DNA of 64,000 bases from a virus: positions 1-64,000 of the IMG/VR virus record IMGVR_UViG_3300049460_000150, one strand, 5' to 3'. The translations under genes were made by a program, and so were the position numbers. Positions 4,511-57,660 of the stretch are shown one piece after another. Every line of letters begins with the position of its first letter. Within the stretch, counting starts at the first letter, position 1. The notes beneath the pieces are model-generated. The model ran no database searches and was not told the DNA's origin. It saw only the letters and a list, made by a program, of their open reading frames with translations.

Positions 4511-4838
4511 GGTGGCCGTTTTGGAGTCTTTCGCGTACGGCGAGTATATCACCTGACATTTCGAAACACCATATTTCAGAGGCCGATACCACGTAATGGC
4601 GGAGGCGCGGATGAGCCATGAACGCCTTGTAATCCGCCACCGTCAAATTAGGACCAGTGCGCGGGTGCGTATGCCATGTTGCCACAACATCCAGGTTAAA
4701 AAGCAGCTCGTTTTGAATGGCGAAATTGTCCATTGGGTCCGGGTGCAAGTTGCGTAATTCGATGACCCTGCCGTCGCTCATAACTATGCCGCAACGCTCT
4801 GGCCCATTTGGGTCATGGAATTCTTTTAAGTTTTGCAT
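4449..4838 (-). CDS. JAB/Mov34-type protein (one half of lambda K-like function)
   Basis: ERCG near the N-terminus and the WHTHP-x6-T-x2-D JAB motif; tail tip context. Confidence 0.8.
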   Translation of the reverse strand: MQNLKEFHDPNGPERCGIVMSDGRVIELRNLHPDPMDNFAIQNELLFNLDVVATWHTHPRTGPNLTVADYKAFMAHPRLRHYVVSASEIWCFEMSGDILAVRERLQNGHHDNDNPTRIPPEPSPGTDPG

Positions 4839-5301
4839 GGATATGCTCCGGTAAGATGTCCATCATGTCAGTCGTTGGGTAAGCTGTGCCAGCCATGGGT
4901 GTGGTCGCAGGGTGGCGGATGATCGCCAGCAGGCGGGCTTTCCACTTATCCATGAGTGCGTCTTCTGTCGAGAAACGCCCCATGATATGGTGGATAAACA
5001 TGCCGTTGCCGACATAGCAGCCGACGTGGTTAGCCTTCCCATTTATGAGAGAAAATACGAGGCCGTCGCCAACGCGCAAGATGCGTGTGTTGAGGCCCAT
5101 GTTCTCCCATCCATCGTGAGAGATGAACTGGTCGATCAAGTTCATCTCTTTGTCGTCCCACCAGCCTTCGGGCCGAGCGGCGTTGACAATAGTGATGCCG
5201 AACACGTCCTGGTAGTAGCGACGGGCCAGCCCGTAACAGTCGTCTACACCAGACTTGTATGCAATACCAAGCAGGTGTTTGTAGTTGGCATGAAGTCCCA
5301 T
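4813..5301 (-). CDS. NlpC/P60 family tail assembly protein (other half of lambda K-like function)
   Basis: DCYGL catalytic Cys motif and NHVGCYVGNGMFIHH. Confidence 0.88.
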   Translation of the reverse strand: MGLHANYKHLLGIAYKSGVDDCYGLARRYYQDVFGITIVNAARPEGWWDDKEMNLIDQFISHDGWENMGLNTRILRVGDGLVFSLINGKANHVGCYVGNGMFIHHIMGRFSTEDALMDKWKARLLAIIRHPATTPMAGTAYPTTDMMDILPEHIHAKLKRIP

Positions 5302-5798
5302 TATCGAAGGCTCACAGTTGGAAAATCAGGTGGATAAAAACTACGGGCTGGCAGACTGAAATTAACGCCGTCGATGGTGGACCTTAGCTCGAAAACAGCC
5401 ACGTCTTTATTAAGGTTCACAACCTTGGACAGAACCCAGATGTTTTTCGTGTAGGCGTTGACGCCAGCTTCCAGGTCTGACAGCAGCGCACGGTAACGGG
5501 TGATAATGGCCCCGTCAGTCTTGCCAGATTCAATCCAGGTTGAGAAGATACCAGCAGGGTTCAACACCGTGAACTTTGGACGTGACTGTTCACCTGTGGA
5601 GTTCTGGGAGTTCTCCGATAGCTTGCATGGCAGCGTTTCCCAGGTGTGGTCTAGCCAGTCGTATTGGTTGTGCGGCGTGATGTACATTGTTGCGTCGTCT
5701 TCGGAGGCGAATTCGATCTTATAGAACTCTCGGATGCCACGGGATTCCAGCTCGAAAGCGTCGAACTGCTGAGAAATAGGAATCTTCTGATTTATCAT
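5301..5798 (-). CDS. Minor tail protein, lambda L-like (short form)
   Basis: Position between the M-like and K-like genes; QSRPKFTV and VFELRS motifs. Confidence 0.7.
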   Translation of the reverse strand: MINQKIPISQQFDAFELESRGIREFYKIEFASEDDATMYITPHNQYDWLDHTWETLPCKLSENSQNSTGEQSRPKFTVLNPAGIFSTWIESGKTDGAIITRYRALLSDLEAGVNAYTKNIWVLSKVVNLNKDVAVFELRSTIDGVNFSLPARSFYPPDFPTVSLR

Positions 5799-6232
5799 GG
5801 CATATCCTCGTACTCAATTTGAATCAGATCGGTCTCACCGGAACTGCCGATTCCAGGCATCTCGACAAGCTCTATTTCTATGTTCTCTACCACCCCATTG
5901 CCGCCCTCTTTTCCCTCTGGGATTTTCAGCGGCTTGTTGAAGCGGCATGAGAGTGGGCCGTACACCGGATGATTATAGGTGAACGTTGCGTGCAGCTTGT
6001 GAAGGCCGTAGAAGTCGTCCAGAAGTGCAAGGTTGTACTCTGGGTGGACGCTGCGGTCAATGGACCCATTAACTACGAAGTATTGCATGGCCTTAAACTT
6101 CAAACGGAAAATCCGTTGGTCGGGCGCGGTGGGAGGCGCGGAGAATTCATACGCCCCACCAAGGCGAACCCTGGTGGAGCTTTCAGGGTTCTCAGTGCTG
6201 AAAGTATGGTATGGAAAATTGAGAGTAGCCAT
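5795..6232 (-). CDS. Distal/minor tail protein, lambda M-like
   Basis: Directly after the tape measure gene; VRLGGAYE and FTYNHP motifs; 145 aa. Confidence 0.65.
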   Translation of the reverse strand: MATLNFPYHTFSTENPESSTRVRLGGAYEFSAPPTAPDQRIFRLKFKAMQYFVVNGSIDRSVHPEYNLALLDDFYGLHKLHATFTYNHPVYGPLSCRFNKPLKIPEGKEGGNGVVENIEIELVEMPGIGSSGETDLIQIEYEDMP

Positions 6233-6239
6233 GGTTGTT

Positions 6240-9200
6240 TTATACCTGATTTAACACGACTTGTTTAATGAGCTTCTTCACCTGTCCACCACGGCTGATG
6301 TCGTCGGTGATAACAGCGATGATATCCTTCGGACCAGTGGAGTTAGGCTTCTGGTCTGGACTTACAACCCACACGTTGACGACTGAGCTATCTTCCTTTT
6401 TAGCGGAGGGGACCTTCGGCGAAGAGGATGATACCACCGAATTCGCAGCGCTGTTAAGCGAATGCAGGTAGTCAGTGCCTACCGCATCCGTTGCCGTCCT
6501 GTTCAATACGAACTCCCCAGGCATCAGCATGGTAGGCACGGAGTCGCGGCCTGAAATGCCACCAGTAACAGGCCCACCACGGGCCATGCCTTTAACACGC
6601 TGAATCCCGCCTGGGACAATCAAGCCACCTGTTGCAGCCATGAGCGAGAAGTCAGCTCCTATCTGGCTGGTCGTACCTACGTCGGCTCCGGCGACTCCAC
6701 TACCAGCGCCTACACCGAAGCCAAGCAAACCGAACAAACCTTTCACGGCTTGCAGGGCCAGGGCTTGGGCCAGGATGTCGATCATGGCTTTGATGACGCC
6801 CAGTGACATATCCTTGAACGCGGACTTGACCGACTTGGTGCCAGTGACGACAGCGGCGAAGGCATTGCCCAGTTGGCCCGTCACGGAGCCAAGCACGCTT
6901 GAGAGGCCATCGCCCACGACCTTGACCACGTTCATCTGACCCACGGTTGCCTGATACTTAGCCCACACTTCATCGAGCTTATTCAGCAGGTTGTCTAGAG
7001 TGAGTTCTTGAGGCAAAGCTTCTGTGTTCTCCTGGGCCTTCTTCTGGATGTTGAAATTGTCCACTTGGAGCTTCTGCTTCTCGCTACGAGCCGAGCGCAG
7101 ATCGCGGAAACTATCCGTCATTACTTTTTCTTGCACGTTGAGCTGGGATTGCAACTCGGCTTTGACCTTCGTGTCAGTCTCAGTCAGCAGCTTGTCGCCA
7201 AGTTCTTTTACCAGCGCTTTTGACTCTTTGTATTTCGTTGTCAGCAAACCGATCTGGCCTGTGGTGGCATCACCGTATTCGGCCAACGCTTTTTCGTTCT
7301 CTTCCAACTCGATCTTGGTAGACTCTACAATCAGGCGGTTGCGGCGCTGATTCAGGGTCTCACGAATCGAGGCCGAAACGCCACCAGCCGACAGTGTGCT
7401 TTCATTGCCAGAGTTGGTCGTGGTGCGGGACGAGCTGGTGCCGCGACTGCCAGCGGTAACGCCATTTGGGCCGAACGTGGCGTTGTCGTAGGTGACGGTG
7501 GATTTCGAATCGGATTTAACCTTCTTTCCAGTGGCGATTGCAAGCTCAACTTCGCGCAGTTCTTGCTGGGCGGCGAAGACACGATCTTCGCTGTCCAATT
7601 TGTCCTCTGCAATCTTACGCTTGGACTCGTTGATTTTCTTCGTTACCGTGTCGAGACGATTCATCGCGGATTCTATCAACGAAATGAAGCTGTCAGCGAA
7701 GGTATTAATCTTCGAGTCTTCGGACTCGGCCAGAGCGTTCATTTCGAGACGATGTGCGAGGTCGCCGGTCTTCTTGTCATAACCCGGTTGTTCTGACTCA
7801 TATTTCTGCTTTGAGGCCAGCGCGGCGAGACGCTTCTTCTTAGCGTCGAATTTAGCCTCAATGGCCGCATCCATCAGCTTGCCAACTTCGTCCATCGTCT
7901 GAGCGGTCTTGATGGCGGCGCGGTCTTCGTTGGCTTCGGCGTCGGCGGCATCAGCCTGGACGCGCAAGGAACGTTCCGAAAGATTCTCGTTCAATCGAGC
8001 GCCAGGAGCGGCACGGACTTTGCGGTCGTCAATGTTCTGCTTGCGTTGCTCTGCGATGGCGCGCAGTTCTTCTTCATTGTCTTGAATCTTAGCAGCGCTG
8101 GTTAGGCCACGGTTCTTGAACGCGATTTCGTTATCGAACAACTGATCTTCGATCTCCTTCTGACGGGTCTTGTCACCCTTCATCTTGGCGTTCTTTTCTT
8201 GCTCTTGCAGCAGCCGCTTGGTGTGGTTGTAGGCGAGCTGCGCGTCGTCCTTCGAATCGTCCGCTGCGCGGAGGAATTCGTTTTTCTCTTTTTCAGAGCG
8301 TGCATTGACGAGCGCTTTCGCGGTGTCAAACGTGTCCTTGTCAATCTTGCCGGAGTTCTTCAATTCGGTGATAAGTTTGACGCGCTCTGCGTAAATCTTT
8401 TGGCGCGTCTCGTACTCATCTTTCACCAGCTCGTAGACCTTGACCGGATTGCTCTCTTCTTTCTGTCCAGAGGCTTCAAGCGCCAGCTCGGTTAAATTAC
8501 CAACTCGTGGGAGGCTTTCTTCGAACGTGCGCGTCTTACCTTTCACGGCACCGAAACGGCCAGACTCGTTGAAGTCCTTAAAGGCTTGGGTACGGTTCAA
8601 CGTCCCTTGAAGACCGCCCAGCTCTGAGCGGGTGGCATTTACATCAGACAGATTCTTGACGACTTCGCCAAGCTTATCGGCCACGGATTGGAATCGGTCG
8701 GCTACGCTCTCGGCCCCGCCACGGTTCGAGATGTCGGATGACTTACGTTGCAGCAGGATACGGGCGCTGGAGAGTTGTCCAAGATTCCCCGTGCTTCCTT
8801 CCCGCAATTGGGACAAGGCGGTCTCCAAAATCTGACGCTCGGAGGCAGTGAAATTGCCCTGGCTGGAACCGATGGCGGATTGAAGGTCACGGGTGAGGCC
8901 ATTGCCTGCCGTGCCGAACGTGCCTTTCGACTTGTCCAGTGACTCCTTCAGCTTCTCGGTTTGAGCCTCCAAAAGCTTCTCGTTGTCGGCAATGGCACTT
9001 TCAAGACTCTGCTTGCGTACTTCCTCCATTTCTTTCTTGAGCTTTTTCAGCGAGTCAATCATGCGATCAAAGCTCAAGGTCGCGGTGTCTGCCGCGTAAC
9101 CGTTCGCGCCGAACTGATTAGTCAGTGCAAGATTCTCTGCGGTCAGAGCGTTTGTGCCGTCCCCCAAGGAGCCTTGTTTATAGGTCAGTTCCTCAATCTT

Positions 9201-11792
9201 TTTCGACAAGGAAGAGACCACCTTATCCTTCTCTTCGAACACGCCTTTCGCCGTGTTCGCGGAAGCCTTCAATTCATCCATCGCGGCGGCGGAGCGGCCC
9301 GTGATGTACTCGAATGCATAGAACCCAGCGGTTGCGGCAGCGACAGCGATGCCGATTCCGCTCACGATGGATAGGCCAAGGAAGGCGGTCTTGACCGTGT
9401 TGAGCGCGACTGCGAGCGTGCTGGTCGAGGCAGCGGCAACGGTGGCGACTGGAGAGATGAGGCCGATTGAGGTCGCCAGCGTGCCGATGGAACCCACTTG
9501 GCTGGCGGTCTGCAAAGCGGTCACGGCCAGGGAGGCGGCACCGGCACCTTGCGCGAGGCGCAAAGCCCCAGCGGCCATGCTCGCCAAATAGGCGGCGGCA
9601 CCAGACGCGGCGAACCCGGCCAACGAGGTGACAGCCACGCCCACCAGTATGTTGTGTTCGGAAAGGCTCTGGATCAGCGTAGCAAAGCCGCCGATAATAG
9701 CGGTCAACAAATGGCCCAAAGGCTCGAAGCCCGTAGAGGCCAGGTTGCCGAGCGCGGTTGTCAAGCGCGTGGCTTGCGAACGGAACGAGTCCATTTGTAC
9801 TTCATTTGCCTTGACGCCAGCCTGCGTGTCCTGGAGCAGCAGGTATTGACGTTCCAGCTCGGCTGGATTGGCGATCAAAGCGTTGAATGCGGCAGCGCCG
9901 CGAACGTCGAAGGATTTGATGGCGTCGGAGGCCACAAAGCCAGCATCACGCAGCTTGTTGGTTACTCCCAGCAAACCATTCGAGCGGAAGTCCACGTCGG
10001 CCAGGGTCAGGCCCAGGCGTTGCAGAGTGGCCGTGAACTCCTTACTCGGCTTCTCGGTCTCGGTGATGAATTGGCGAAGACCAGTACCAAGTGTCGAGCC
10101 GCTACGGATACCAGCGTTGGACATGGCCGCGAGTGCCGCCGTAACCTCTTCAAAAGAGATGCCTACTTGCGAGGCGGCGTTACCTACATACTGGAAGCCA
10201 AGCGCCAGCTTTTCGACCGAGATTTTGGATGAGTTGGAAGCTTGCGTGACCTTGTTGGCGATGTCCGCAATGTCCGTCGTGCTTTTATCAAACACGCCGA
10301 TGATGGAAGTTACGAGGTCCACGGCCTGTGAAATAGAGGTGCCAGCGGCGCTTGCGAGCGAGACCACAGCGCCGAGCGAATCGCCGACCTGTTTAGCGCT
10401 CAAACCAGCTTGGCCCAGAGTCAGCGCGGCGTTGGCTACTTCAACAGACGAAAACTTACTGGCTCCAGCCACCTCTTTGATGCGGTCTTCCAGGCCGCGC
10501 ATTTCGGTGCTGGTCGTCGCCGTGACAGCCTGCACATTTCGGAAGGCGGCTTCGAGTTCAATAGACGTGCCGACAGCGGACTTTACGGACGTGACAAAGC
10601 CGTTCAAAATCGAGTAGTTCGCCAGCAGGGACGCTTGCACAGCCAGCAGGGCCGCGCCGCCCTCACCGCTGGCGCGATTCAGCATGTTGCGCGACTGAGC
10701 ATCTTGACGGGCCTGACGAGTCTCAGGATCGTTCAAGTTTTGGTCGCGGCGAGCGTTCGTAATCTGCACCGATTTCTGGCGCACTTGCTCCAGGAGTTTC
10801 GCTTCTTCCTGGAGATTGATATTGCCCTTGGCGCGCTCGGCCACGAGGCGGGCTTCGATGTCGCGCACGTCTCCCACGAGTTGGCGCACCTTGGCACCAT
10901 CGGTCAAGGTGGCTTTAATCGAGGCTTGGGCAAGGCCAGCGTCCTTGTAGATTTGGCCCAGGTATTGGCTGGTGGAAGACGACATTAAACGGTCAAGAGA
11001 GATGTCAGTCTTTCCAGGCATCAGAGACGAGTCGATACGGGCGCTGCGAATCTCTGCTTGCTGGCTCGCGTAATCGCGCCCGCGTTGGCTGTAGTCGAGC
11101 TGCGTGTTTGTGGCGCGAGTTTGCGCGGACGCCGACCCTTCCTCTTGCTTGCGCTGTTGGGCGAGGCGTTGAATCTCAGCGTAGCGCTGCTTAGAGGCGT
11201 TGAAGTTTGCTTGAGCAATTTGCTCGTTCAACTTGTCTTGCGTGGCCTGCTGTTTCATCTCGCCGATGACGACATTCAGGAGACCGATATTGTCGTTAAG
11301 AAGCGTCTTCTTTTGTTGCAGGGCAGCGTTACCAGCGTCGTTCTTCAAAGCGAGGTCCACAGCCTTGAGGTTCGTTTCGAGAACCTTCATGGCCGCAGCG
11401 GCTTCGGTGGTGGTCTTGGCGTTCAAGCCCAGTTCGTACTTCTCCAGCGCGGCGCTTTGACGCATGGAATCGTAGGCTTTGGCGGCAGCGGAAATGGCGC
11501 GATTAATCGCGTTGACATTGGCTACTTCATCGCTCTTGAAAAGCTCCTGGCCTTGGCGTACAGTTCCAAGGAACTTTAATTCACGTTGAAGGACGCGAAT
11601 CAGGTTAGTCAGTTCTTCAGGTTTTTTGCCTGCCTGGAAGGCTTCAACCAGCTTCTTCCCGCTGTCAGCCGCAGCGCCTTCCAGTTTTTCGACTATCTTG
11701 AGCAGCGCGTCGAAAGTCTTGGTCGCCTCGGCGGAACCGGGGGTCTCTATTCCGGCTACCACGCTCGCCTGGAATTGGTTATTATCTGCCAT
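6240..11792 (-). CDS. Tape measure protein
   Basis: About 1850 aa, Ala-rich and helical, with TP901-type core motifs (SKFSSVEVANAALTLGQAG, GIRSGSTLGTGLR) and a C-terminal GRDSVPTMLMPGEFVL. Start moved to MADNNQF (11792). Confidence 0.93.
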   Translation of the reverse strand: MADNNQFQASVVAGIETPGSAEATKTFDALLKIVEKLEGAAADSGKKLVEAFQAGKKPEELTNLIRVLQRELKFLGTVRQGQELFKSDEVANVNAINRAISAAAKAYDSMRQSAALEKYELGLNAKTTTEAAAAMKVLETNLKAVDLALKNDAGNAALQQKKTLLNDNIGLLNVVIGEMKQQATQDKLNEQIAQANFNASKQRYAEIQRLAQQRKQEEGSASAQTRATNTQLDYSQRGRDYASQQAEIRSARIDSSLMPGKTDISLDRLMSSSTSQYLGQIYKDAGLAQASIKATLTDGAKVRQLVGDVRDIEARLVAERAKGNINLQEEAKLLEQVRQKSVQITNARRDQNLNDPETRQARQDAQSRNMLNRASGEGGAALLAVQASLLANYSILNGFVTSVKSAVGTSIELEAAFRNVQAVTATTSTEMRGLEDRIKEVAGASKFSSVEVANAALTLGQAGLSAKQVGDSLGAVVSLASAAGTSISQAVDLVTSIIGVFDKSTTDIADIANKVTQASNSSKISVEKLALGFQYVGNAASQVGISFEEVTAALAAMSNAGIRSGSTLGTGLRQFITETEKPSKEFTATLQRLGLTLADVDFRSNGLLGVTNKLRDAGFVASDAIKSFDVRGAAAFNALIANPAELERQYLLLQDTQAGVKANEVQMDSFRSQATRLTTALGNLASTGFEPLGHLLTAIIGGFATLIQSLSEHNILVGVAVTSLAGFAASGAAAYLASMAAGALRLAQGAGAASLAVTALQTASQVGSIGTLATSIGLISPVATVAAASTSTLAVALNTVKTAFLGLSIVSGIGIAVAAATAGFYAFEYITGRSAAAMDELKASANTAKGVFEEKDKVVSSLSKKIEELTYKQGSLGDGTNALTAENLALTNQFGANGYAADTATLSFDRMIDSLKKLKKEMEEVRKQSLESAIADNEKLLEAQTEKLKESLDKSKGTFGTAGNGLTRDLQSAIGSSQGNFTASERQILETALSQLREGSTGNLGQLSSARILLQRKSSDISNRGGAESVADRFQSVADKLGEVVKNLSDVNATRSELGGLQGTLNRTQAFKDFNESGRFGAVKGKTRTFEESLPRVGNLTELALEASGQKEESNPVKVYELVKDEYETRQKIYAERVKLITELKNSGKIDKDTFDTAKALVNARSEKEKNEFLRAADDSKDDAQLAYNHTKRLLQEQEKNAKMKGDKTRQKEIEDQLFDNEIAFKNRGLTSAAKIQDNEEELRAIAEQRKQNIDDRKVRAAPGARLNENLSERSLRVQADAADAEANEDRAAIKTAQTMDEVGKLMDAAIEAKFDAKKKRLAALASKQKYESEQPGYDKKTGDLAHRLEMNALAESEDSKINTFADSFISLIESAMNRLDTVTKKINESKRKIAEDKLDSEDRVFAAQQELREVELAIATGKKVKSDSKSTVTYDNATFGPNGVTAGSRGTSSSRTTTNSGNESTLSAGGVSASIRETLNQRRNRLIVESTKIELEENEKALAEYGDATTGQIGLLTTKYKESKALVKELGDKLLTETDTKVKAELQSQLNVQEKVMTDSFRDLRSARSEKQKLQVDNFNIQKKAQENTEALPQELTLDNLLNKLDEVWAKYQATVGQMNVVKVVGDGLSSVLGSVTGQLGNAFAAVVTGTKSVKSAFKDMSLGVIKAMIDILAQALALQAVKGLFGLLGFGVGAGSGVAGADVGTTSQIGADFSLMAATGGLIVPGGIQRVKGMARGGPVTGGISGRDSVPTMLMPGEFVLNRTATDAVGTDYLHSLNSAANSVVSSSSPKVPSAKKEDSSVVNVWVVSPDQKPNSTGPKDIIAVITDDISRGGQVKKLIKQVVLNQV

Positions 11793-15078: not shown

Positions 15079-15577
15079 GTTCCACCGCCTTGACTCCCAT
15101 CACGTCGTAGACGCGCTTTACGTTGCGTCCGTCGATGATATCTCCTGACACAACATCCTGCCCTGTCAGGAAGCGATATTTAGTCTCCGAAGTACCCTGG
15201 AACATGATCGCTTCAGGCTTCTCGAAGTATGCGTAAATGAGGCCCATGTCTGATAGGCCAGTGTCGCGCTTTACCTTGGAAACCGGATCGGTCACGACCA
15301 CTCGGCGCTTCCATGCGTACTGGTGGGAGACGTAGGCGACCCGGTACGCCTCTGCCCAGGCAAAGTCTGGTGCAGTCTCCAGCAGGAGTATCTTACGGCC
15401 TCCAGGGTCAACTACAATCGCTCCTATGCTCGCAATTCCAGGCGACTTGACCATCAGCTTACGGTAGGGCATCTGGTCCTTGGTGGGCGCTTCCGCGAGC
15501 GGGCCGAGTAGCGCCATGAAACGCGCTCCGTCCAGGCGGCGGAACACCTCGAACAGCCGGTTTGAGGTAGCGCGCAT
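15071..15577 (-). CDS. Putative head-closure protein
   Basis: Start moved to MRATSNRL (15577), just after the previous stop; call is positional. Confidence 0.45.
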   Translation of the reverse strand: MRATSNRLFEVFRRLDGARFMALLGPLAEAPTKDQMPYRKLMVKSPGIASIGAIVVDPGGRKILLLETAPDFAWAEAYRVAYVSHQYAWKRRVVVTDPVSKVKRDTGLSDMGLIYAYFEKPEAIMFQGTSETKYRFLTGQDVVSGDIIDGRNVKRVYDVMGVKAVELE

Positions 15578-15578
15578 G

Positions 15579-16313
15579 TTAGGCTCCGGTGATGCGGTCA
15601 GCCTGCGAACTGAGCGAGAACAGGTTGTGGCCGACAGCGACGGAAACCGTGCCACCGATAGCATCGGTTATTTGCTGCAAACGAGCAGCAAGTTGACCGC
15701 GCAAGTCACCCTCAAGTTTTATGAAGTCCATGGCCGCACGTTCGAAGCCGGAATTGTCTGCCTTTTCCGACTTGAGCAAGCGGCTCTGCATCGACTGGCA
15801 AAGTGACACGGCGGCTTGCAGCGCAATGGCGTTGTTCGCGGCCATGGCAATTACGTCGGTGCGGCGCAGCGCGGTATCGATGGCGGCACCATAGATCGCG
15901 GCCAGCTCCATGTAGGCCGCGATAAGGTCGATATCGTCGTCCGGCAACTCGTCATGATCGGCACCTACAAGGGCGCGCACGGACTGCGGCCCTTCCGTCA
16001 TGGGGATCATGTGGTGCAGGCGATACGCTTTCGAGACCGAATACGGCTTCGAATTGTACATGAAATCTGCGCGCAAATAGCGCGACTCAAACAGCACGTT
16101 CGAGGGGATATCGCTGAGGGCCAGTGACATCACCACGGACATCTGGGTCGGCACGGCATCTACAGGCTGGGAGAAGTTGTACTTCTGGATGATGGACCCG
16201 CCATTATCCCAGGCTGTGAAACCGATGGTGTTGGCGTCCGGCACAACCGGCTGGCCGTCAACCATAAATTCCAGTATGACAGTTTGAGCCTGTCCGGCTA
16301 GACGCCATTCCAT
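15579..16313 (-). CDS. Putative head-tail adaptor
   Basis: VRALVG...LPDDDI adaptor-like motif; lies after the capsid block. Confidence 0.5.
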   Translation of the reverse strand: MEWRLAGQAQTVILEFMVDGQPVVPDANTIGFTAWDNGGSIIQKYNFSQPVDAVPTQMSVVMSLALSDIPSNVLFESRYLRADFMYNSKPYSVSKAYRLHHMIPMTEGPQSVRALVGADHDELPDDDIDLIAAYMELAAIYGAAIDTALRRTDVIAMAANNAIALQAAVSLCQSMQSRLLKSEKADNSGFERAAMDFIKLEGDLRGQLAARLQQITDAIGGTVSVAVGHNLFSLSSQADRITGA

Positions 16314-23052: not shown

Positions 23053-23069
23053 GGATGATACTATCATCC
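23053..23069. promoter_or_regulatory. 17-bp palindrome GGATGATACTATCATCC in the divergent terL intergenic region
   Basis: 8-bp arms around one central base; identical copy at 29704-29720. Confidence 0.7.
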
Positions 23070-23678: not shown

Positions 23679-26120
23679 ATGTCTATCGAAACCCCTACCA
23701 TCTTCGCCTCCACCGCCCCTGCGTATTTCGCTGCTGGAATGTCCGTAATTCCACTGCACGTCCGCGAGAAGAAACCAGTGCCAAACGACTGGTCCATGTT
23801 CCACGATTTGTTGCCTGCCAAGGAGCTGCAAAACCAGTGGTTGGCTGGCAATCCAAACTCCAACATTGGTCTGGTCCTGGGCCGTCAGTCCGGCGTGACC
23901 ATGATCGACATCGACACGGACGATGAAAAAATCTACTCCGCCATCATGGGTTGTCTGCCTCATTCGCCATGGCATCGTCGTGGTAAAAAAGGCATGATGA
24001 TCGCCTTCAAATTCAGCGGACATAAGACCTTCCGAATCAAGAATATGTCTGGTCAAACCATGGTCGAGTGTTTGTCGTCCAGGACCCAGTGCGTTTTACC
24101 CCCATCGATCCACCCAGAAACGCAGCAGCCATACACGTCAAACTGCGAGCTGATAGATGTCGTCGGAAATCTGCACAATCTGCCCACCGATATCGAAGAT
24201 ATGTTACGCACGGCCATCAAGGCTGCGGGCGTGGACCTTTCTCACTCCGGCTGGAGCCGTGTTACTGACTACGTTTCGAGCGGGTCGCGGGACACGACGC
24301 TGACCGAGATGGCTGGCCTCTTCGCTTTCGCCGTTGTTCGTGGCGAAAGGACGCTGAAGGAAGCCATTGGTATGCTCCAGGCGTATTACAACGAGTATAT
24401 CGAGACGGTTGCAGGCGACCAGATCGATGTTGAAAAGCACATTGAGAATCTGATTAAGTTCCTGCACCGCGACGTGCTGGATAAGGGCAAAGTCCTGCCC
24501 AAAGGGTGGGACGAAGGGTACAGCGCCGAAGATTTGACAAAAATGGGCGTGACTCTGGGCGTGGACCAGACCGAGTGGGCCTTCGATGAAGTCCGCAACT
24601 ATCTGAAGACCTGTTTTGAGACCTACGGCGCGGAAGGCAAGGAGCGCGGAGATGCGGTCGAGATCGTCTTGTCACGCATTGCCAAATCCAAGACCCTTTC
24701 CAAGATCGATGAAGACCGGCTGTTGCAGTATATCGTTGATGTCTCAGGTTTGGGCGTCAAGATCAGCACGTTGCGGGCGCGTCTGAAGGAGCTGCGCGCT
24801 GGAACTGTGCAGGGCAACGACCACAGCGAAATCGCCAGGGCTGTTCTGGCAGATTTGAGCCAGTACAATCTGGTGAGGTTCCACACCGGGAAGTTGATGA
24901 AGTGGGCAGGCTCCCACTGGGTCGAAATGGAGATGCACGCCATCAAGAGTTTGGTGTCGAACTCTTACGGTCACTTAGCCGCTTGCAAAAAGGCCAGCGA
25001 CATCAACGGTATCCTCCAAATTCTGATGTATATCGCCGAGCAGGGGATTCAGAAAAAAGTCGTCAAAGGAATTAACTTCGCCAACGGGTTTTTGACGCAG
25101 GAATTGAAGCTGATTCCCCATGAGCCAGACTTCGGCATGACTTATACGATGCCATTCCGCTACGTTCCAGAGGAAGCTGGACGCTTCCCGATGTTCGACG
25201 CCTTCCTTGCGCGGAGTTGGGGCGCGGACAAGGACTATATTGACAAGGTTATGGCGCTCCAAGAGGCCATGGCGGTGACGTTGTTCGGTCTCGGCTCCAT
25301 GTTTCAGCGTGCGATTCTGCTGCACGGTGCGCCGAAATCGGGCAAGACCCAGTTGTTGCGCATCATCGAGACCCTTGTACCAGCAGAAGCACGTACTTCG
25401 GTGCCGCCAAACCACTGGGATGACAAGTACATGCCAGGGCAGATGGTCGGCAAGATTTTGAACATCTGCGGCGAGCTGTCCGACAAGAAGCTTATCGACG
25501 GCCAATCCTTCAAGGACATCGTTGACGGGAGTGAGCGCAGTGGTCAGCACAAATATGGTGCCATTTTCAGCTTCCGTCCTTTGCTGACTCACTGGTTCGC
25601 CTCGAACCACATTCCGCGCACGGCGGATACGTCCAGCGGTTTCATTCGTCGGTGGCTGTTTTTGACGTTCCATTTCCCGGTACAAGATGGGGCCATTGTT
25701 GCAGACATTGGCGACATCATTGCAGCCCAGGAGCGCGAGGCCATTGTATCGTGGGCGGCGCAAGCAATGCCGCGTCTGTTGAAGAAGGGCGATTACACCA
25801 CGCCGGACAGTCACCGGATGCTAGTAAATGAGTTCGCAAATATGAACAACTCTGTCCGTTACTACATGCGTGAAAGTGGAAAGATTACTTTCGACCACGC
25901 GGGCCACGCGGCTAGTAAGCTTTTTGCCACAGAAATGTCGCTGTACAACTCCTACTGGGCTTTCTGTGCTGGCGCTGGTGGGCTGAAGCCGGTGGGCCAG
26001 CAACGTTTCCGGGCGATCATGCGTGAGCTGCAACCAGAGCTTGGCTTTAAGCTCGAAGTAGCCCAGACAACGCTGGGCGGAACCGAGGCAGTCTACCGTG
26101 GGATGTCTATACACGTATAG
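23679..26120 (+). CDS. Primase-polymerase fused to D5-like SF3 helicase
   Basis: Prim-Pol motifs (NIGLVLG, IDIDTD, VLPPSIHP), GSRDTTL PriCT-like segment, Walker A GAPKSGKT, FASNHIP. Confidence 0.9.
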   Translation: MSIETPTIFASTAPAYFAAGMSVIPLHVREKKPVPNDWSMFHDLLPAKELQNQWLAGNPNSNIGLVLGRQSGVTMIDIDTDDEKIYSAIMGCLPHSPWHRRGKKGMMIAFKFSGHKTFRIKNMSGQTMVECLSSRTQCVLPPSIHPETQQPYTSNCELIDVVGNLHNLPTDIEDMLRTAIKAAGVDLSHSGWSRVTDYVSSGSRDTTLTEMAGLFAFAVVRGERTLKEAIGMLQAYYNEYIETVAGDQIDVEKHIENLIKFLHRDVLDKGKVLPKGWDEGYSAEDLTKMGVTLGVDQTEWAFDEVRNYLKTCFETYGAEGKERGDAVEIVLSRIAKSKTLSKIDEDRLLQYIVDVSGLGVKISTLRARLKELRAGTVQGNDHSEIARAVLADLSQYNLVRFHTGKLMKWAGSHWVEMEMHAIKSLVSNSYGHLAACKKASDINGILQILMYIAEQGIQKKVVKGINFANGFLTQELKLIPHEPDFGMTYTMPFRYVPEEAGRFPMFDAFLARSWGADKDYIDKVMALQEAMAVTLFGLGSMFQRAILLHGAPKSGKTQLLRIIETLVPAEARTSVPPNHWDDKYMPGQMVGKILNICGELSDKKLIDGQSFKDIVDGSERSGQHKYGAIFSFRPLLTHWFASNHIPRTADTSSGFIRRWLFLTFHFPVQDGAIVADIGDIIAAQEREAIVSWAAQAMPRLLKKGDYTTPDSHRMLVNEFANMNNSVRYYMRESGKITFDHAGHAASKLFATEMSLYNSYWAFCAGAGGLKPVGQQRFRAIMRELQPELGFKLEVAQTTLGGTEAVYRGMSIHV

Positions 26121-26358: not shown

Positions 26359-27321
26359 ATGAGCACTTCTAGCATTCAACCAAGCCCACGCAAACCTTCC
26401 AAATCCACGAAGGCATCCGCGCTCCAAATTCCAGTTCCATCGACCCCAGCAAAAGGTCGTCGTAGTCAGGTATCACTCCCAGGCGAGGCACCGACCGGGG
26501 CAAAGCGTCCAAGCCCAGGCCAGCGCTCGCCCCGACTCAGTGGTATGCACGACCTGTCCTTCAACACATGCGTTAAAACGCTGTCTGGCATCACGATCTC
26601 GCGCCAGGGGCTTTTGCAACTGGAACTGGCCGTTGGTCTCGCCGTGTTCCTGGACTTCGGAGTTGCAGATCGTGCGGCCAAGACCATGCTGCAAGAAGTC
26701 TACTCAAAAGCGGGCTATGATTGTGCTGATTCGGCGGCCCCACACTATAAGACGGTCAATCGCCGGATTCAGGCCAGTGCGGCGCTGTTCGGCAAGATCA
26801 GCCTGGAGGTCCTAAACCACTGGGTAGACGGCAAGAAAGAGGGCAAGCTTTTGCAGGCCATCGCCCAGGAGATTGTGGAGTTTGGTTTCAAGTCCATGGA
26901 CGACGTTCTGGACCACGTTGGGCGCGCAAGCAATCGCGGGCCTGCCGTGGAGGGCCAGGAGGTTGGTGTCGCGGAGGCCGGTTCGGGCACTCGCGGCAGG
27001 AAGGCAAATACGGCCTTCGATATCCAGGTCGGAGACGACGTGGTTGTGCATCTGCCGCGCAAGCTGACGGAGGCAAATCTTGTCGAGCTGGCAACCAAAA
27101 TCATGGCGCTGGCCCAGGTGATCCACGACCAGGAGGCTGCTGCTAAGGCCCAGGAGGCGGCAGACGCAGCAGCGGGTCTGATAGCACCGCTGGAGGCCCA
27201 GGACGGCGCTCAGGCGGTTCTGGGCGGTCCAGAGGGCGAGGCTCCCCCGGCAGGCGCGGGTGTTGGCCCGCAGGACGTTGCCGGTGACGTAGTGGTTGTC
27301 GGGGGCCGGAAACGGCACTAA
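26359..27321 (+). CDS. Hypothetical protein, paralogue A of 27724..28548
   Basis: GGGGA RBS, own promoter and terminator; shares ELAV, AGYxC, YKTVNRR and GFxxxDDVLDxVG motifs with the next gene. Confidence 0.8.
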   Translation: MSTSSIQPSPRKPSKSTKASALQIPVPSTPAKGRRSQVSLPGEAPTGAKRPSPGQRSPRLSGMHDLSFNTCVKTLSGITISRQGLLQLELAVGLAVFLDFGVADRAAKTMLQEVYSKAGYDCADSAAPHYKTVNRRIQASAALFGKISLEVLNHWVDGKKEGKLLQAIAQEIVEFGFKSMDDVLDHVGRASNRGPAVEGQEVGVAEAGSGTRGRKANTAFDIQVGDDVVVHLPRKLTEANLVELATKIMALAQVIHDQEAAAKAQEAADAAAGLIAPLEAQDGAQAVLGGPEGEAPPAGAGVGPQDVAGDVVVVGGRKRH

Positions 27322-27521: not shown

Positions 27522-27723
27522 ATCAGGCCCGTTATATGGTGCAAAATGGTTGCAAAAATTTTTCAAAATTTTTTCCAAAACGTGAGACCTCTATACCCGA
27601 CCCAAGCCCTCGCCACAAGCTCAAAAAAGCCCTATACTCTTAGTCATGCAGTCAGGTAAAGCAAGGTCCCGGAAACGGGACCACGCAAGGCCCCTGCTAA
27701 CCCTATCAATCTGATATAAGGAA

Positions 27724-28548
27724 ATGACCATGAAAACCGCTGTCCAATCCACGCAAGGCCAAGGCACCACTACGTCCATCGACTATACCGTCCTGACGCT
27801 GGCAATCGCAAACGCTGCACTGTCGCGCCGCGCCGCGCTGCACATGGAGCTGGCCGTATCGCTGATTCACTTCACGCAAGAAACGGGCGGCACTGACGCG
27901 ACCGGCAAGGCCAACATGAAGGCCATCTACCATGGCGCGGGTTATCTGTGCATGGCTAAGAGTGACCGCGATTATAAAACGGTTAATCGTCGCTTGAATG
28001 CCATGGCTAAAGTGTTCGATAAAATCGGCTCCAGCACGGTCAACGAATGGATCGAGAACAAAGGCGATACAGATAGTATGCTCGCCTACGTGCAAACTGA
28101 ATTGCTGGCGTATGGCTTCGATACGTTGGATGATGTACTTGATTATGTTGGCGTAGAAACTAACAGAACCCGTGCGCCGCGCCAACCAGCCGCGCCGGTA
28201 GCAATCACGGTCCCGGAAACGGGACCAGCACCGGCAGCAGCAGCAGCGCCAGCGGTAGCAGTTCTGCCAACGTTCGACGCGGCACAAGTGCGCGCTGAAA
28301 TGATGGCTAACATGTCACCCGATGCGATCCGTGAATTCTGCGCGCAAATGCTGGCCGATGTCGCTGCACTGGAGCAAGCACAGATTGACGCTGAAACGGC
28401 AGCAGCAGCAGCGCCAGCAGCAGCAGCAGCAGCAGCAGCACCGGCAGCAGTCGTGCCGATGAATAGCAAGGCACGCAAACAGGCAAAGAAACAGGCGCAT
28501 ATCGCGGCGCAGCAGCAGCAGCAGCAGCAGCAGCGCGCAGCAGCATAA
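27724..28548 (+). CDS. Hypothetical protein, paralogue B, with poly-Ala/poly-Gln tail
   Basis: AAGGA RBS; shared motifs with 26359..27321; GCA/CAG triplet runs at 28399-28440 and 28510-28533. Confidence 0.8.
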   Translation: MTMKTAVQSTQGQGTTTSIDYTVLTLAIANAALSRRAALHMELAVSLIHFTQETGGTDATGKANMKAIYHGAGYLCMAKSDRDYKTVNRRLNAMAKVFDKIGSSTVNEWIENKGDTDSMLAYVQTELLAYGFDTLDDVLDYVGVETNRTRAPRQPAAPVAITVPETGPAPAAAAAPAVAVLPTFDAAQVRAEMMANMSPDAIREFCAQMLADVAALEQAQIDAETAAAAAPAAAAAAAAPAAVVPMNSKARKQAKKQAHIAAQQQQQQQQRAAA

Positions 28549-28629
28549 TGTGGCACGGTAGCGGTCCCGGAAACGGGACCGCATCGCAAGTAAATAACGG
28601 TCCCGTTAACGGGACAGGCACCGGAGGAA

Positions 28630-28752
28630 ATGTACATGCAATGGATCGTGTCTGAATTGGCCGTTTGGCCGCTGTCGCATTTTGTCGGGCTGGCGCTGGA
28701 TGTCGCCGTGATCGTTTGGCTGTGGAAGTCCACGCCTATCCGTTTGAAATAA
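28630..28752 (+). CDS. 40-aa hydrophobic (single-TM) protein
   Basis: Below the ORF-track cutoff. GGAGG RBS; translates to MYMQWIVSELAVWPLSHFVGLALDVAVIVWLWKSTPIRLK; flanked by palindrome copies. Confidence 0.65.
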   Translation: MYMQWIVSELAVWPLSHFVGLALDVAVIVWLWKSTPIRLK

Positions 28753-28786
28753 CGGTCCCGTTTCCTGGACCTTCACCGGAGGATTT

Positions 28787-29032
28787 ATGTCTGAATTCAA
28801 CATGGCCGCATGGCTGAAAAAGCGTTTGGCTGATCCATCGCTTTCGACCACGGAGTATTTACATCACGAGCGTGCTTTGCAGGACATCGAATTTCGCCAG
28901 CGTGTGCTGGACGCGGAGTATGCCCACAAGGAACGTATGCTGGCGCTGGAGGCCGAACAGGCTGATTTCCAGCGCCGCATCGGCGCGGCACATGCCAAAT
29001 TGGACGCGCTCGGCGCTCCGCGTTTTTCGTGA
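28787..29032 (+). CDS. Hypothetical coiled-coil protein
   Basis: GGAGG RBS; flanked by palindrome copies. Confidence 0.75.
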   Translation: MSEFNMAAWLKKRLADPSLSTTEYLHHERALQDIEFRQRVLDAEYAHKERMLALEAEQADFQRRIGAAHAKLDALGAPRFS

Positions 29033-29080
29033 ACAAAACGGTCCCGTTTCCGGGACCGGCACCGTTGAAAGGGTTTCCAA

Positions 29081-29461
29081 ATGGCTGGCATGAGCGACAA
29101 TCCCCTCGTGGGGGACTACACCAAGGGCATTTCCAAGGGTCGGCAATACTTCGTGGAGTTGCGCACGAGGTTCTTCCTTGAGAAAGCTGACCTGAAACAC
29201 GTCACTTTGGACCTCCAAATGGGGCTGTTCAAGGAGGCAAAGGCGTTCACTGACGCTTTCGTGAAGCTGAATCACCTAGACCGTTTTGGGCCGGTGCCGG
29301 TCCCGAAAACGGGACCGAAAAGCGTTGCTTTGCGTTCAACTCCATTGGCGCAGAAGCAACGAGTTATCCACAGGCCGACTTCGACAATTGCGAAAAACGC
29401 AAGCCTGAAAGTTTCTGCGTTGCAAGACATTAGGTTGCTTTACATGCAACTTTGTGGATAA
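29081..29461 (+). CDS. Hypothetical protein (doubtful 3' half)
   Basis: Weak RBS; the 3' half runs through a palindrome copy and DnaA boxes. Confidence 0.4.
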   Translation: MAGMSDNPLVGDYTKGISKGRQYFVELRTRFFLEKADLKHVTLDLQMGLFKEAKAFTDAFVKLNHLDRFGPVPVPKTGPKSVALRSTPLAQKQRVIHRPTSTIAKNASLKVSALQDIRLLYMQLCG

Positions 29462-29584
29462 CTCGCGTTTTTCTGTGGATAGTTTTTCTGGCCCTGTGAA
29501 TAACTTATTTTTGCCTAAAAAATAGGCAGAAAACAGCGTTTTTTGTGGATAAGTCGGTGGATAACGCTAAAAAGCTGTGGATAA
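29364..29584. promoter_or_regulatory. DnaA-box cluster
   Basis: TTATCCACA at 29364; TGTGGATAA at 29453, 29544, 29576; TGTGAATAA at 29495; one-mismatch boxes at 29474 and 29556. Confidence 0.8.
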
Positions 29585-29588
29585 ACCG

Positions 29589-30198
29589 GCTTGATAGTCT
29601 CATCCACTTTCGGGGCGAGCGCCTGAAATTTCGGGTTTTCTGTAACGAATGATGGGCCGAATGGTCTAGACCATTTGTGGTCATTTTGACAGGATTTTTG
29701 GGAGGATGATACTATCATCCCCCCATTTGCTTGCACATCGGACGAGAAAATGCAAGCGCTAAATCTGCCTAAAAATGAGGCAAATCGTTGTGCAGCGCAA
29801 TATTTTGGCCTTTGGATGATAGTCTCATCCCCTTTTGGGGGCCAGGACAGGCACCGGGCGATGGCGAGGTCCCGGAAACGGGACCGGAGCGGCGGGTAGG
29901 AACCACAGGGAGGGGATGCAGACGTGATGGCGATGAAATGGGCTTGGCTTTGCGCTCGATTTTGCGCTCGCTTTTGCGCTCGCTTTTGCGCTCGCTTTTG
30001 CGCTCGATTTCCGATCACTTTTGCCTTCGCTTTTGCGCTTGGTTTGTGGTAAGGGGACGGCACCGGCTTTTCCTTTCCTTTCGTTATCTTCTCTCTTTTT
30101 CTAATTACTCTTTAGGGTTGAAGGGGGGATGATAGTATAAAAGGGTAAAGAGAAAAGAGTTACTTTTAAGAAATAAAGAGAGGATGAGACTATCATCT
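29589..30198. repeat. 17-bp palindrome family GGATGAKA-S-TMTCATCC
   Basis: Copies at 29704 (perfect), 29814 and 30182; partial copies at 29589 and 30127; also at 23053. Confidence 0.85.
29948..30007 (+). repeat. 12-bp tandem repeat (TTTTGCGCTCGC)x5
   Basis: Five adjacent units, with degenerate units continuing to about 30040. Confidence 0.9.
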
Positions 30199-30710
30199 AA
30201 AAAATTCTGGACCCCTGCCGGTCCCGGTCCCGTCGCCAACTAATGCCCAATTTTTAGGCAGTGTTTTCGGTGCCTTTTCCGACCCCAAAAAGTTGCCGAA
30301 AAGTGCATAAAATGCCCCTCAAATTTGCCTAAAATTTGCCTAAAACTTGCCTAAAAATTGAGCATTTCTCGTGCTGCCGATCCACATCCTGATCCACATC
30401 CACATCCAAAATCTGCACCAATTTTCGTTAAGGGGAACATCCATGCGCAACGTCATTCCGACCCAAAAGCGGTCATCACTTTTAGCCTCCCTCACCCGCC
30501 CAATTTCCATACCCGCCTGGGTGCCCATTTTCATCACCCTCACCAACATGGTTTCCATCACCATTTTGGTCATCGCCAACCGAGACATCTTCGCAGCATG
30601 GTTCCACGGCTAAATGCAAGGGGTAAAGCTGCCGCCCTCCCACTGCCCGGTCCCGTTTCCGGGACCCGCCACAACCCTGGCCCCAGCATGGACCCCCAAA
30701 GCGATCAGAA

Positions 30711-51109: not shown

Positions 51110-51379
51110 ATGACACTTCGATGGTTTGACGTTCACTCCCCAGTTTCACGGTATGGCGTAGGAAAAATCGAAGTGTCAGACGACACAATAACCAAGACCA
51201 GCCCAGCTTATCGCTGGGCTTTGTCTAGGCACTTCGAAACTACGCGCCGCGTCTGGGAACGTGACGGCTTCGAACTGGTGGAGCGTTTCGAGTGCAACTG
51301 CAAGGGCTTTAACAAGCCCGCTCGCAAGCATCCTCCCATCCCAAACGATTCAGAACTTTATCATAGGATATCTCCATGA
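51110..51379 (+). CDS. Hypothetical protein
   Basis: GGGAG RBS before ATG 51110. Confidence 0.55.
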   Translation: MTLRWFDVHSPVSRYGVGKIEVSDDTITKTSPAYRWALSRHFETTRRVWERDGFELVERFECNCKGFNKPARKHPPIPNDSELYHRISP

Positions 51380-52800
51380 CATGGACCGCCCGCGAGGACC
51401 AAGTGCAAGACCTCGCACACTTCATCAACAATCCGCGTGACTTGATGCTGCATGATCCAGGCGTCGGCAAGACCATTGTTGCGGCCTTGTATTCGTACTA
51501 CGCCTGGGCGCACAAGAAGTCCCGTATTAGCTGGGTTCAACCCATCTCGCTCGTTAACAAGAACCGCGAAGAGATTTTGAAGTTTACGAACTTTGACGAA
51601 AAAGATGTGGTCTGCGTGCAAGGCACTGTCGTCAAGCGCGAGAATATAATGAAGTCAGACGCCAAGGTCTTTTTGTTCGGTGGTGATGGCTACGCCGCCG
51701 AGTGGGAAAAGCTACACAGCTTTCACCCGGACCTCGGCGTCAATATCTGCGATGAGCCGCACCTGTATTTCAGCGGCCATAAGTCGAAGCGCACCCAGTC
51801 CTGGTATCGCTCCAGTCGTACCATGTGGTCTGTCATCCCCATGACTGGCACAATCGTGAAGGGTAAACTTGACTCGATCTACCCTTTCCTTCATGCGTCG
51901 TTCCCAGACTATTACGGGACCTATGAGAACTTCATGGCGATGCACGCCGAAACAGACGAGTATGGCAAGCTGATCTACTGGAAGAACCACGACCGGCTGC
52001 GCACGATCTTGGAGCGGCATAGCATCTGCCGTTCCTTCGAGTCGATCTACGGCGAAGACGCCACGCTCATTATCACCGAGACCGTGGAGATGGAGAAGGT
52101 GCAGCGCGAGAAGTACGAGGAACTGGAGGCTTTCGCGCTGGTGGAGCTGGAGGATTCCTTCATCGAAGCTGGCACTCCAGGCATCAAGGCTATTCGCGCC
52201 AGACAGATCATGTCCTGCCCCGAACACCTGGGCGTGGTTCCAATCGGCACCGTCACCGGCAAAGATGAACGCCTGCTGTTGCATATTCAGGAGGCCATCG
52301 CGTCGAACGAACGGCTCACGATTTTCGCCGCACTGGTGCCGGAGCAAGAGCGCATCGTTGCCATGCTCAAGAAGCTGGGCAAGACGGTGGGGCTTATTAA
52401 CGGGAACACGCCGTTGAAACATCGCCAGACCTTCGATGAAGAGTTCCGCGCTGGCCGTCTGCAATTCGTGGTGGGTTCTCCCGCGTGCATGTCGGTGGGC
52501 TTTAACTGGGGCTTTCTGCGCAAGGTCGTGTTCACATCGCTTGACTACATGGACGACAACTTTGTCCAGGCGTACAAGCGAGGCGTGCGCGGCGTGCGCG
52601 AACACCCGCTGCTGGTCTACGTCCTTGAGTATAAAAACTCGATTGACCAGCGCATTTTCAGGATCGTGGAAGGCAAGTCGAAAGACGCGCAAAAGATCAC
52701 TCCGCACAAGCGGATACTCAACTTCAAAGGCCACGCCATCCGTGACCTGGAAGAGAAGGCCCGAATGGGCAACTTAACTATGGAAGGATTTATATCGTGA
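51376..52800 (+). CDS. SF2 (SNF2-like) DNA helicase
   Basis: DPGVGKT, DEPH, MTGT, VGFN and QAYKRGVR helicase motifs. Confidence 0.88.
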   Translation: MTWTAREDQVQDLAHFINNPRDLMLHDPGVGKTIVAALYSYYAWAHKKSRISWVQPISLVNKNREEILKFTNFDEKDVVCVQGTVVKRENIMKSDAKVFLFGGDGYAAEWEKLHSFHPDLGVNICDEPHLYFSGHKSKRTQSWYRSSRTMWSVIPMTGTIVKGKLDSIYPFLHASFPDYYGTYENFMAMHAETDEYGKLIYWKNHDRLRTILERHSICRSFESIYGEDATLIITETVEMEKVQREKYEELEAFALVELEDSFIEAGTPGIKAIRARQIMSCPEHLGVVPIGTVTGKDERLLLHIQEAIASNERLTIFAALVPEQERIVAMLKKLGKTVGLINGNTPLKHRQTFDEEFRAGRLQFVVGSPACMSVGFNWGFLRKVVFTSLDYMDDNFVQAYKRGVRGVREHPLLVYVLEYKNSIDQRIFRIVEGKSKDAQKITPHKRILNFKGHAIRDLEEKARMGNLTMEGFIS

Positions 52801-57394: not shown

Positions 57395-57660
57395 GCGATT
57401 ACGAACTCCCAAGCATTCAGGAAGTCGCGCAACACTTGCGCGACAAACGCAAGGCGTATCAGCAACGGTATGGGTACGCCCCCAACTACGTTGTTTTTCG
57501 TGAGCGCTGGAAGATGGTGGACTGCACGAGTCTGCTTAACGGAACCAACGGGGTCCAACCAGTGGGCGTTATGCGTCTGCGCGACTTGACCATGTTCGAT
57601 GGTCTGACGGTGCTGTTTTCTGATAAAATTTCGGAGTCCTTTGTGGGGATACTCGAATGA
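57391..57660 (+). CDS. Hypothetical protein
   Basis: AAGGAG RBS before GTG 57391; overlaps at both ends. Confidence 0.55.
   Translation: MSDYELPSIQEVAQHLRDKRKAYQQRYGYAPNYVVFRERWKMVDCTSLLNGTNGVQPVGVMRLRDLTMFDGLTVLFSDKISESFVGILE

Follow-up and report, generated by a model that had tools for sequence, protein, structure and literature searches.

The phage and its replication genes

The DNA analyzed here (the window) is a stretch of 64,000 nucleotides, positions 1 to 64,000 of the IMG/VR virus record IMGVR_UViG_3300049460_000150. The full genome is a single contig of 79,112 bp, listed in IMG/VR as a complete virus; its ends overlap by 127 bp, which makes the assembly circular and means that any terminal repeat has been collapsed. 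Judged from its primase, the phage is JWF/Lumi-like. The named relatives, by similarity of that protein, are Xylophilus phage Lumi (62%) and Achromobacter phages 2-1 and JWF (53%), followed at greater distance by Caulobacter phage Seuss (44%) and a group of Acinetobacter phages (~34%). The genome encodes a gpA-type terminase, and the genes that matter for what follows are these:

23679–26120, + strand: Prim-Pol / D5_N / DUF5906 primase-helicase, 3.8 kb upstream of the 12-mer array
27724–29461, + strand: cassette of small genes within the putative terminal repeat, comprising a 274-aa protein (27724–28548), an 81-aa protein (28787–29032), and an ORF (29081–29461)
51376–52800: SNF2 helicase
56612–57394: 5'-3' exonuclease
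57657–60269: family A DNA polymerase

A family A polymerase, an exonuclease, an SNF2 helicase, and a primase-helicase are thus all present, as expected from the statement in the initial annotation that the phage encodes its own replisome. That annotation had also set the phage's own primase-helicase and PolA beside the lack of a Rep initiator; the two enzymes are indeed there, and the missing initiator is doubtful. The profile of the primase-helicase matches a D5-type primase-helicase of solved structure (7ola, E = 2e-6) as well as the pRN1 ORF904 prim-pol domain. Proteins of the D5/ORF904 class are self-loading and act as the initiators of their own replicons, which weakens the premise that no initiator is encoded. 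The primase-helicase is likely to be the self-loading initiator of this phage.

Neither an integrase nor a DnaA homologue was found in the phage genome, and we therefore set aside lysogeny or plasmid maintenance as a reason for a DnaA-dependent origin. Elsewhere in the family, primase-helicase genes occur within large bacterial contigs (L118 and L119; Inquilinus limosus MP06, 120 kb, and Burkholderia paludis MSh1, 290 kb), and some members may be prophage-like, in contrast to the integrase-free phage described here. The proteins of the small-gene cassette received no assignment from Pfam, PHROGs, or the ESM Atlas. The largest of them (27724–28548) is a tandem paralogue of the product of 26359–27321 (35% identical over 133 aa, E = 8e-26)—the former gene lying just inside the putative terminal repeat and the latter just outside it—and neither paralogue has a Pfam, PHROG, or Atlas match.

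The box cluster and the surrounding control region

What lies between the cassette and the early genes? A large gap follows the cassette and carries a dense series of repeats, palindromes, and DnaA boxes. Listed with them below are the putative start of the terminal repeat and a related palindrome farther upstream:

23053–23069: promoter-like palindrome, fifth copy, in the gap that separates the terminase gene from the primase operon
27553–27638, + strand: putative outer start of the terminal repeat at ~27585, after a AAAATTTTTC tract (27553–27580) common to Lumi and JWF
27610–27638, + strand: conserved promoter-like TCGCCA-N17-TATACT, inside the putative outer repeat start
29299–29316, + strand: hairpin GGTCCCG-AAAA-CGGGACC, where the coding potential of ORF 29081–29461 ends (~29290)
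29360–29465: perfect 13-bp inverted repeat, CGAGTTATCCACA / TGTGGATAACTCG, with an 80-bp spacer, embedding the boxes at 29364 and 29453
29364–29584: DnaA-box cluster of 221 bp, with five exact TTATNCACA boxes and two one-mismatch boxes
29364(+), 29453(-), 29495(-), 29544(-), 29576(-): the exact TTATNCACA boxes
29474(-) and 29556(-): the one-mismatch boxes, CTATCCACA and TTATCCACC, respectively
29512–29528: palindrome TGCCTAAAAAATAGGCA, a putative protein site between two box sub-clusters
29589–29830, + strand: three tandem predicted promoter-like palindromes GGATGATAGTMTCATCC, at 29589, 29704, and 29814
29949–30039: iteron-like tandem array of the 12-mer TTTGCGCTCGCT, 7.7 copies
30074–30190: pyrimidine tract followed by a purine tract, holding the least and third least stable 40-mers of the genome
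30288–30360: array of the 11-mer AAATTTGCCTA, 6.7 copies, just beyond the putative repeat end and matching the Lumi 12-mer array in position

By codon-usage scoring, the coding potential of the ORF at 29081–29461 ends near 29290, though the ORF formally continues, and it next clearly resumes at a small ORF near 30444 and then at the gene at 30814. All seven boxes therefore lie in non-coding DNA (~29290–30443).

The cluster is real and non-random. All seven boxes reported by the initial annotation were recovered in place, six of the seven in the same orientation, and the density exceeds that of the shuffled background it had proposed as a check. There are 6 exact boxes in the 64-kb window vs. 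0.9 expected (six or more were reached in 0 of 100 shuffles), and five of the six fall inside the 221-bp cluster; the full 79,112-bp genome likewise holds 6, so that one exact box lies outside the cluster. Sites with at most one mismatch number 44 genome-wide, 7 of them within the 221 bp. Across 300 shuffled genomes the maximum was 2 exact boxes per 221 bp, reached once, and the naive genome-wide probability of the cluster is ~4e-11. Along the co-oriented run the start-to-start steps are 21, 21, 49, 12, and 20 bp, the boxes at 29544 and 29556 forming a 12-bp pair with a 3-bp gap.

Are these 9-mers DnaA boxes or parts of a longer repeat? Four copies in the cluster are perfect TTATCCACA, and the fifth exact box fits TTATNCACA. 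When the seven sites are aligned, information content drops sharply beyond the edges of the 9-mer, which identifies the DnaA box itself, rather than some longer iteron, as the unit that is repeated. Together with a density far above chance, these properties uphold the original identification, and the seven 9-mers are very probably binding sites for the host initiator DnaA, as predicted from their sequence.

The palindromes around the boxes fall into distinct families. The TGCCTAAAAAATAGGCA palindrome occurs in four copies, all in the control region (29512, 29766, 30244, and 30348), and the family itself is real. We rejected a reading of these palindromes as Fis sites: the degenerate Fis consensus shows no enrichment (135 found vs. 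136 expected) and has no discriminating power. Each of the GGATGATAGTMTCATCC palindromes has an extended -10-like element, TGnTAGTCT or TACTAT, and the middle copy, as TTGACA-N18-TACTAT (29686–29715), is the only one with a good -35. The first GGATGATAGTMTCATCC palindrome begins 5 bp past the last DnaA box, and 10 nt separate the box at 29576–29584 from the TAGTCT of the predicted extended -10-like element. Because a good -35 is found in the middle copy only, the box-adjacent palindrome may be an operator and not a promoter.

Several further elements were observed in and beyond this region. A short repeat, ATCCAC x4.8 (GATCCACATCC...), occupies 30380–30408 just before the first small early ORF; its CCACA cores resemble DnaA half-sites, with no full box. 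The ORF itself (30444–30614) encodes 56 codons of hydrophobic character, has a ribosome-binding site, AAGGGGAA, upstream and a GGTCCCG palindrome at 30649 after it, and is probably the first early gene past the control region. The palindrome GGTCCCG-N4-CGGGACC is found in 22 copies (at most 2 mismatches) between 27665 and 47084 vs. 0.3 expected. The copies are confined to the early/middle + strand gene block, with loops GAAA and TTTC both represented, and some of them are inside ORFs (e.g., at 28209). The palindrome looks like a DNA-level site at which a dimeric phage regulator binds, or else like a hairpin that sets small-gene cassettes apart.

The putative terminal repeat and the phage family

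How does this control region relate to the physical ends of the genome? The database records of Lumi and JWF have exact direct terminal repeats of 2,298 and 1,466 bp, respectively, the Lumi repeat having been confirmed by PhageTerm (PMC9959647). Each repeat takes in the two or three small genes that follow the primase operon. Both start just past a AAAATTTTTC-type tract, with an AAAAG-N5-TAYACT promoter-like element ~50 nt inside, and both have their inner end within a large gap syntenic with the box-bearing gap described here. The end of the Lumi repeat—a pyrimidine and then a purine tract—aligns with 30083–30175 of this phage, and several other family contigs end 2.4–3.7 kb past the primase in AT-rich or purine-rich tracts. 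From this alignment of features, a direct terminal repeat of ~2.6 kb (~27585–30175) seems on balance probable, its boundaries being placed by motifs only since the assembly is circular and collapsed. On this placement the boxes would be inside the repeat, 1.8–2.0 kb from the left physical end and 591–811 bp from the inner repeat end (~30175). Both putative boundaries (27553–27594 and 30074–30175) fall in 40-mers that rank in the genome's ten least stable; the AT tract by the 12-mer array is therefore more simply a terminal or packaging feature than an unwinding element. The boundary tracts may be sites of terminase cutting or of repeat duplication.

Is the cluster a family trait? We compared 119 family loci (1.6 Mb) drawn from GenBank phages, IMG/VR, metagenomes, and GTDB genomes. 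Two or more exact boxes within 300 bp were found in 0 of the 119, a set with primase identity of at most 66%; the closest relatives, P0002–P0014, stand at 72–85% primase identity. The initial annotation had named a lack of conservation in relatives as evidence that would count against its reading, and in these 119 loci, at primase identities up to 66%, conservation is indeed lacking. Weak one-mismatch clusters in L048, L083, and others were dismissed as AT-rich noise and are non-syntenic. No close relative emerged from a single-protein scan of IMG/VR, and only two distant prophage-like loci came from the genome collection. Because none of the 119 family loci has it, the cluster appears to be a lineage-specific add-on; and since family relatives do without boxes, they are not essential to the family's entry or replication.

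The closest relative examined, L037 (primase 65%), has no DnaA boxes. Its palindromes are arranged as in this phage, one before the primase operon and three in the gap, and a 12-mer array (x7.5, 15545–15645) of other sequence sits in the same place as the TTTGCGCTCGCT array. From the last ORF to the first palindrome, L037 has 90 bp vs. ~300 bp here, the surplus being the box cluster; this difference suggests that the boxes are a ~220-bp insertion into a pre-existing control region. Arrays with a 12-bp period and 5–11 copies recur downstream of the primase in L037, L020/L021, L082/L083, and L080. Their units are unrelated in sequence between phages, as would be expected if they were iterons or packaging repeats co-evolving with a protein of the phage.

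Dense box clusters are not confined to this phage. In IMG/VR, at least 120 viral contigs (L120–L239) carry three perfect co-oriented TGTGGATAA separated by gaps of 3–30 nt, so such clusters are not rare in viral contigs; by a rough estimate, chance alone would yield far fewer than one. Of the 120 matches listed, none is a relative of this phage, and 59 have at least five, and up to 11, exact boxes in 300 bp. Among these matches, flanking genes mostly lack a Pfam assignment; a VapE/DUF5906 helicase gene directly adjoins one cluster. For the whole-contig loci among the matches listed, 14 of 48 clusters are no more than 600 bp from a contig end vs. 8 expected. Docking sites for the host initiator may thus be a kind of phage cis element that is widespread, little studied, and for the most part uncharacterized.

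Possible roles of the array and comparison with known systems

What might the boxes do? The initial annotation had offered an oriC-like origin and a datA-like decoy, and the finding establishes neither a DnaA-dependent phage origin nor a decoy mechanism. Like a bacterial oriC, the locus has a cluster of co-oriented consensus DnaA boxes (five exact and two one-mismatch in 221 bp); unlike oriC, it lacks DnaA-trios within 16 nt, an unwinding element next to the boxes, and any dnaA/dnaN context. Under the basal unwinding rule (PMC8287927), a box should have three or more DnaA-trios (3'-NAN-5') no farther than 16 bp away. Three or more trios within 16 nt were found at none of the cluster's boxes, by a test that ~17% of random positions in the genome pass. 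A search for an AT-rich unwinding element adjoining the boxes returned only a stretch of 70% AT (29480–29540) inside the cluster, and the nearest strongly unstable DNA is 490 bp from the boxes and coincides with the putative end of the terminal repeat. Cumulative GC skew has its maximum at 30188, which is terminus-like under the bacterial rule, and its minimum near 72–75 kb, where gene orientation switches; only the 23–29 kb block departs from the pattern of a C-rich coding strand. GC skew was rejected as origin evidence, since the extremum is a maximum and mostly follows gene orientation, and the coincidence of the minimum with a change in gene orientation makes it uninformative here. These observations, and a primase-helicase that is self-loading, speak against the oriC-like origin.

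The boxes could instead be auxiliary to a phage origin, a reading that we consider possible, on the unlikely side. The 12-mer array would then be the iterons of the primase-helicase and 30074–30190 the unwinding element, with DnaA opening or organizing the DNA as at P1 oriR and in iteron plasmids; or DnaA-stimulated rightward transcription would activate the origin, as at ori-lambda. Iteron replicons (P1 oriR, F, pSC101, and RK2) bring DnaA boxes, an iteron array, and AT-rich DNA together, and here, too, boxes, a tandem iteron-like array, and AT-rich DNA share one non-coding region. The x7.7 array of 12-mers is a tandem array with a helical period and has counterparts in relatives (the architecture is kept in L037 and the 12-bp period in others), the least stable DNA of the genome lies beside it, and strand composition switches with the skew extremum at 30188. 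The VapE/DUF5906 helicase gene next to one of the IMG/VR clusters and the lambda precedent point the same way. However, the boxes abut neither the array (365 bp away) nor the AT tract (490 bp away), and three promoter-like elements stand between. The boxes also lack DnaA-trios, no Rep-family gene accompanies them as in the iteron replicons, and relatives with the same array have no boxes. The AT tract aligns with the physical end of the Lumi repeat and is probably a genome terminus, the other putative boundary being among the least stable DNA as well; the skew extremum is a maximum that largely follows gene orientation; and a D5/ORF904-type primase-helicase loads itself.

Could the array act as a sink, titrating DnaA as phage copies rise and so blocking host initiation? 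E. coli datA is likewise a compact cluster of consensus and one-mismatch boxes able to titrate DnaA, and the phage has more consensus boxes (five exact and two near) than datA (two consensus and four one-misfit). Initiation mass goes up in the presence of box-bearing plasmids, and the DnaA pool of E. coli amounts to only ~200 monomers per origin (PMC5835720). If DnaA binds, some titration must happen, as an unavoidable by-product of copy number. As a selected function, however, a sink appears decidedly unlikely. The phage cluster differs from datA in being phage-borne and multicopy and in having no IHF consensus site between the boxes: the sole match to WATCARNNNNTTR (one mismatch), at 29354, overlaps the first box, and the motif shows no enrichment in the 64-kb window. 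DnaA-ATP hydrolysis of the datA type is therefore not supported. A pure sink would need neither a fixed promoter-side position nor phased spacing, and the fixed position of the cluster by the promoter-like elements favors a role in cis; the benefit to a lytic phage late in infection is hard to see, and the cluster is missing from relatives.

Two other explanations seem very improbable to us. The 9-mers might be iterons of a phage-encoded protein that merely resemble DnaA boxes, in a region full of phage-specific repeat families and alongside genes for two paralogous proteins that have no assigned function. Such iterons would hardly be expected to include four perfect high-affinity TTATCCACA and a fifth site that fits TTATNCACA, nor conservation that stops at the 9-mer, and the motif is found in no relative with the same neighboring genes. 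An equally remote prospect is that host DNA, from oriC or the dnaA promoter region, was recently captured and has no selected function in the phage, as its restriction to one lineage and its inserted appearance relative to L037 might suggest. Yet 401 sampled Burkholderiales genomes gave no extended similarity, only marginal matches of 20–35 bp, and the phage collection gave no match. The boxes are, moreover, interleaved with the phage-specific palindrome at 29512 and embedded in the 13-bp inverted repeat, which points to local evolution.

The reading that we favor, and hold tentatively, is that a docking array for host DnaA serves as a gate where the repeat cassette meets the early promoters, acting on transcription, on DNA entry as in T5, or on both. 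The lineage-specific insert of ~220 bp would sit between the last repeat gene and the first of the three tandem early-promoter-like palindromes. DnaA loading on six co-oriented boxes, three of them phased at 21 bp, would form a nucleoprotein block that covers the upstream/-35 side of the first predicted early promoter and straddles the sole path from the repeat cassette to the early genes. Such a gate would tie early expression to the state of host DnaA, and it might also act on DNA entry, as proposed for the injection-stop region of T5. In keeping with a gate, the class of palindrome next to the boxes also precedes the primase operon, an arrangement common to L037. DnaA is an established activator and repressor of promoters, including at lambda pR/ori-lambda (PMC8203912). 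Both the reading of the palindromes as promoters and the gating by the array are inferred from the DNA sequence. Relatives with no boxes offer a clean box-plus/box-minus comparison of what the boxes add.

A more specific form of the gate, convergent with T5, strikes us as unlikely: membrane-associated host DnaA would catch the array on the incoming repeat and make genome entry or expression pause once past a small pre-early cassette. If this were true, T5 would no longer be a special case, and stepwise entry dependent on DnaA would count as a general strategy.

How does the proposed gate compare with known phage systems? Phage lambda shares host DnaA near an early rightward promoter, transcription that crosses an iteron-type region, and an initiator supplied by the phage. 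It differs in having a few weak boxes, in contrast to the phased consensus array of this phage, where promoter and origin are both putative. By layout, the locus most resembles the DnaA-box array in the terminal repeat of T5, a precedent on which the initial annotation was silent, as it was on the terminal-repeat context. Boxes in the T5 terminal repeat go back to Heusterspreute 1987, as cited in Davison 2020 (bioRxiv 10.1101/866236), where a comparison of 25 T5-like phages gives about eight DnaA or near-DnaA boxes, with pairs 3 bp apart (Davison 2020, bioRxiv 10.1101/866236). The role of these boxes at the injection-stop signal is still called untested (PMC10644984; PMC13250531). In the T5 record (NC_005859), the repeat spans 1–10219, its last gene ends at 9157, a terminator follows at 9275–9296, and untranslated DNA continues as far as 10936. 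The annotated iss (9140–10149) contains the boxes at 9391(+), 9437(-), 9449(-), 9498(-), and 9510(-).

The parallels are close. Both are siphophages, with a long direct terminal repeat in T5 and a putative one here, placed from boundary motifs, and in both the boxes come after the last repeat gene, within a large untranslated stretch that extends across the inner repeat boundary (likewise putative in this phage). The elements come in the same order: cassette, terminator, (+) box, and (-) run in T5, and cassette, hairpin, (+) box, and (-) run here, the co-oriented run reading TGTGGATAA on the coding strand of the cassette in each. Pairs with a 12-bp step and 3-bp gap occur in both (four in T5, one here at 29544/29556), as does a 49-bp step (9449 to 9498 in T5, 29495 to 29544 here), and in both the boxes are embedded in inverted repeats and palindromes are dense. 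The distance from the boxes to the inner repeat end is 701–828 bp in T5 vs. 591–811 bp here, measured to the putative end. The differences are equally plain. T5 boxes are kept in 25 of 25 T5-like phages, whereas those of this phage are missing from every relative examined; the phage cluster is denser and nearer consensus, with five exact boxes against one exact and four near-consensus boxes in the T5 iss. The repeat here, at a putative ~2.6 kb with three small genes, is much shorter than the 10.2 kb of T5, and promoter-like elements directly follow the boxes, unlike in T5. The two lineages are unrelated. The boxes of T5 have been known since 1987, and here a second, unrelated phage of what is probably the same genome type carries the same layout.
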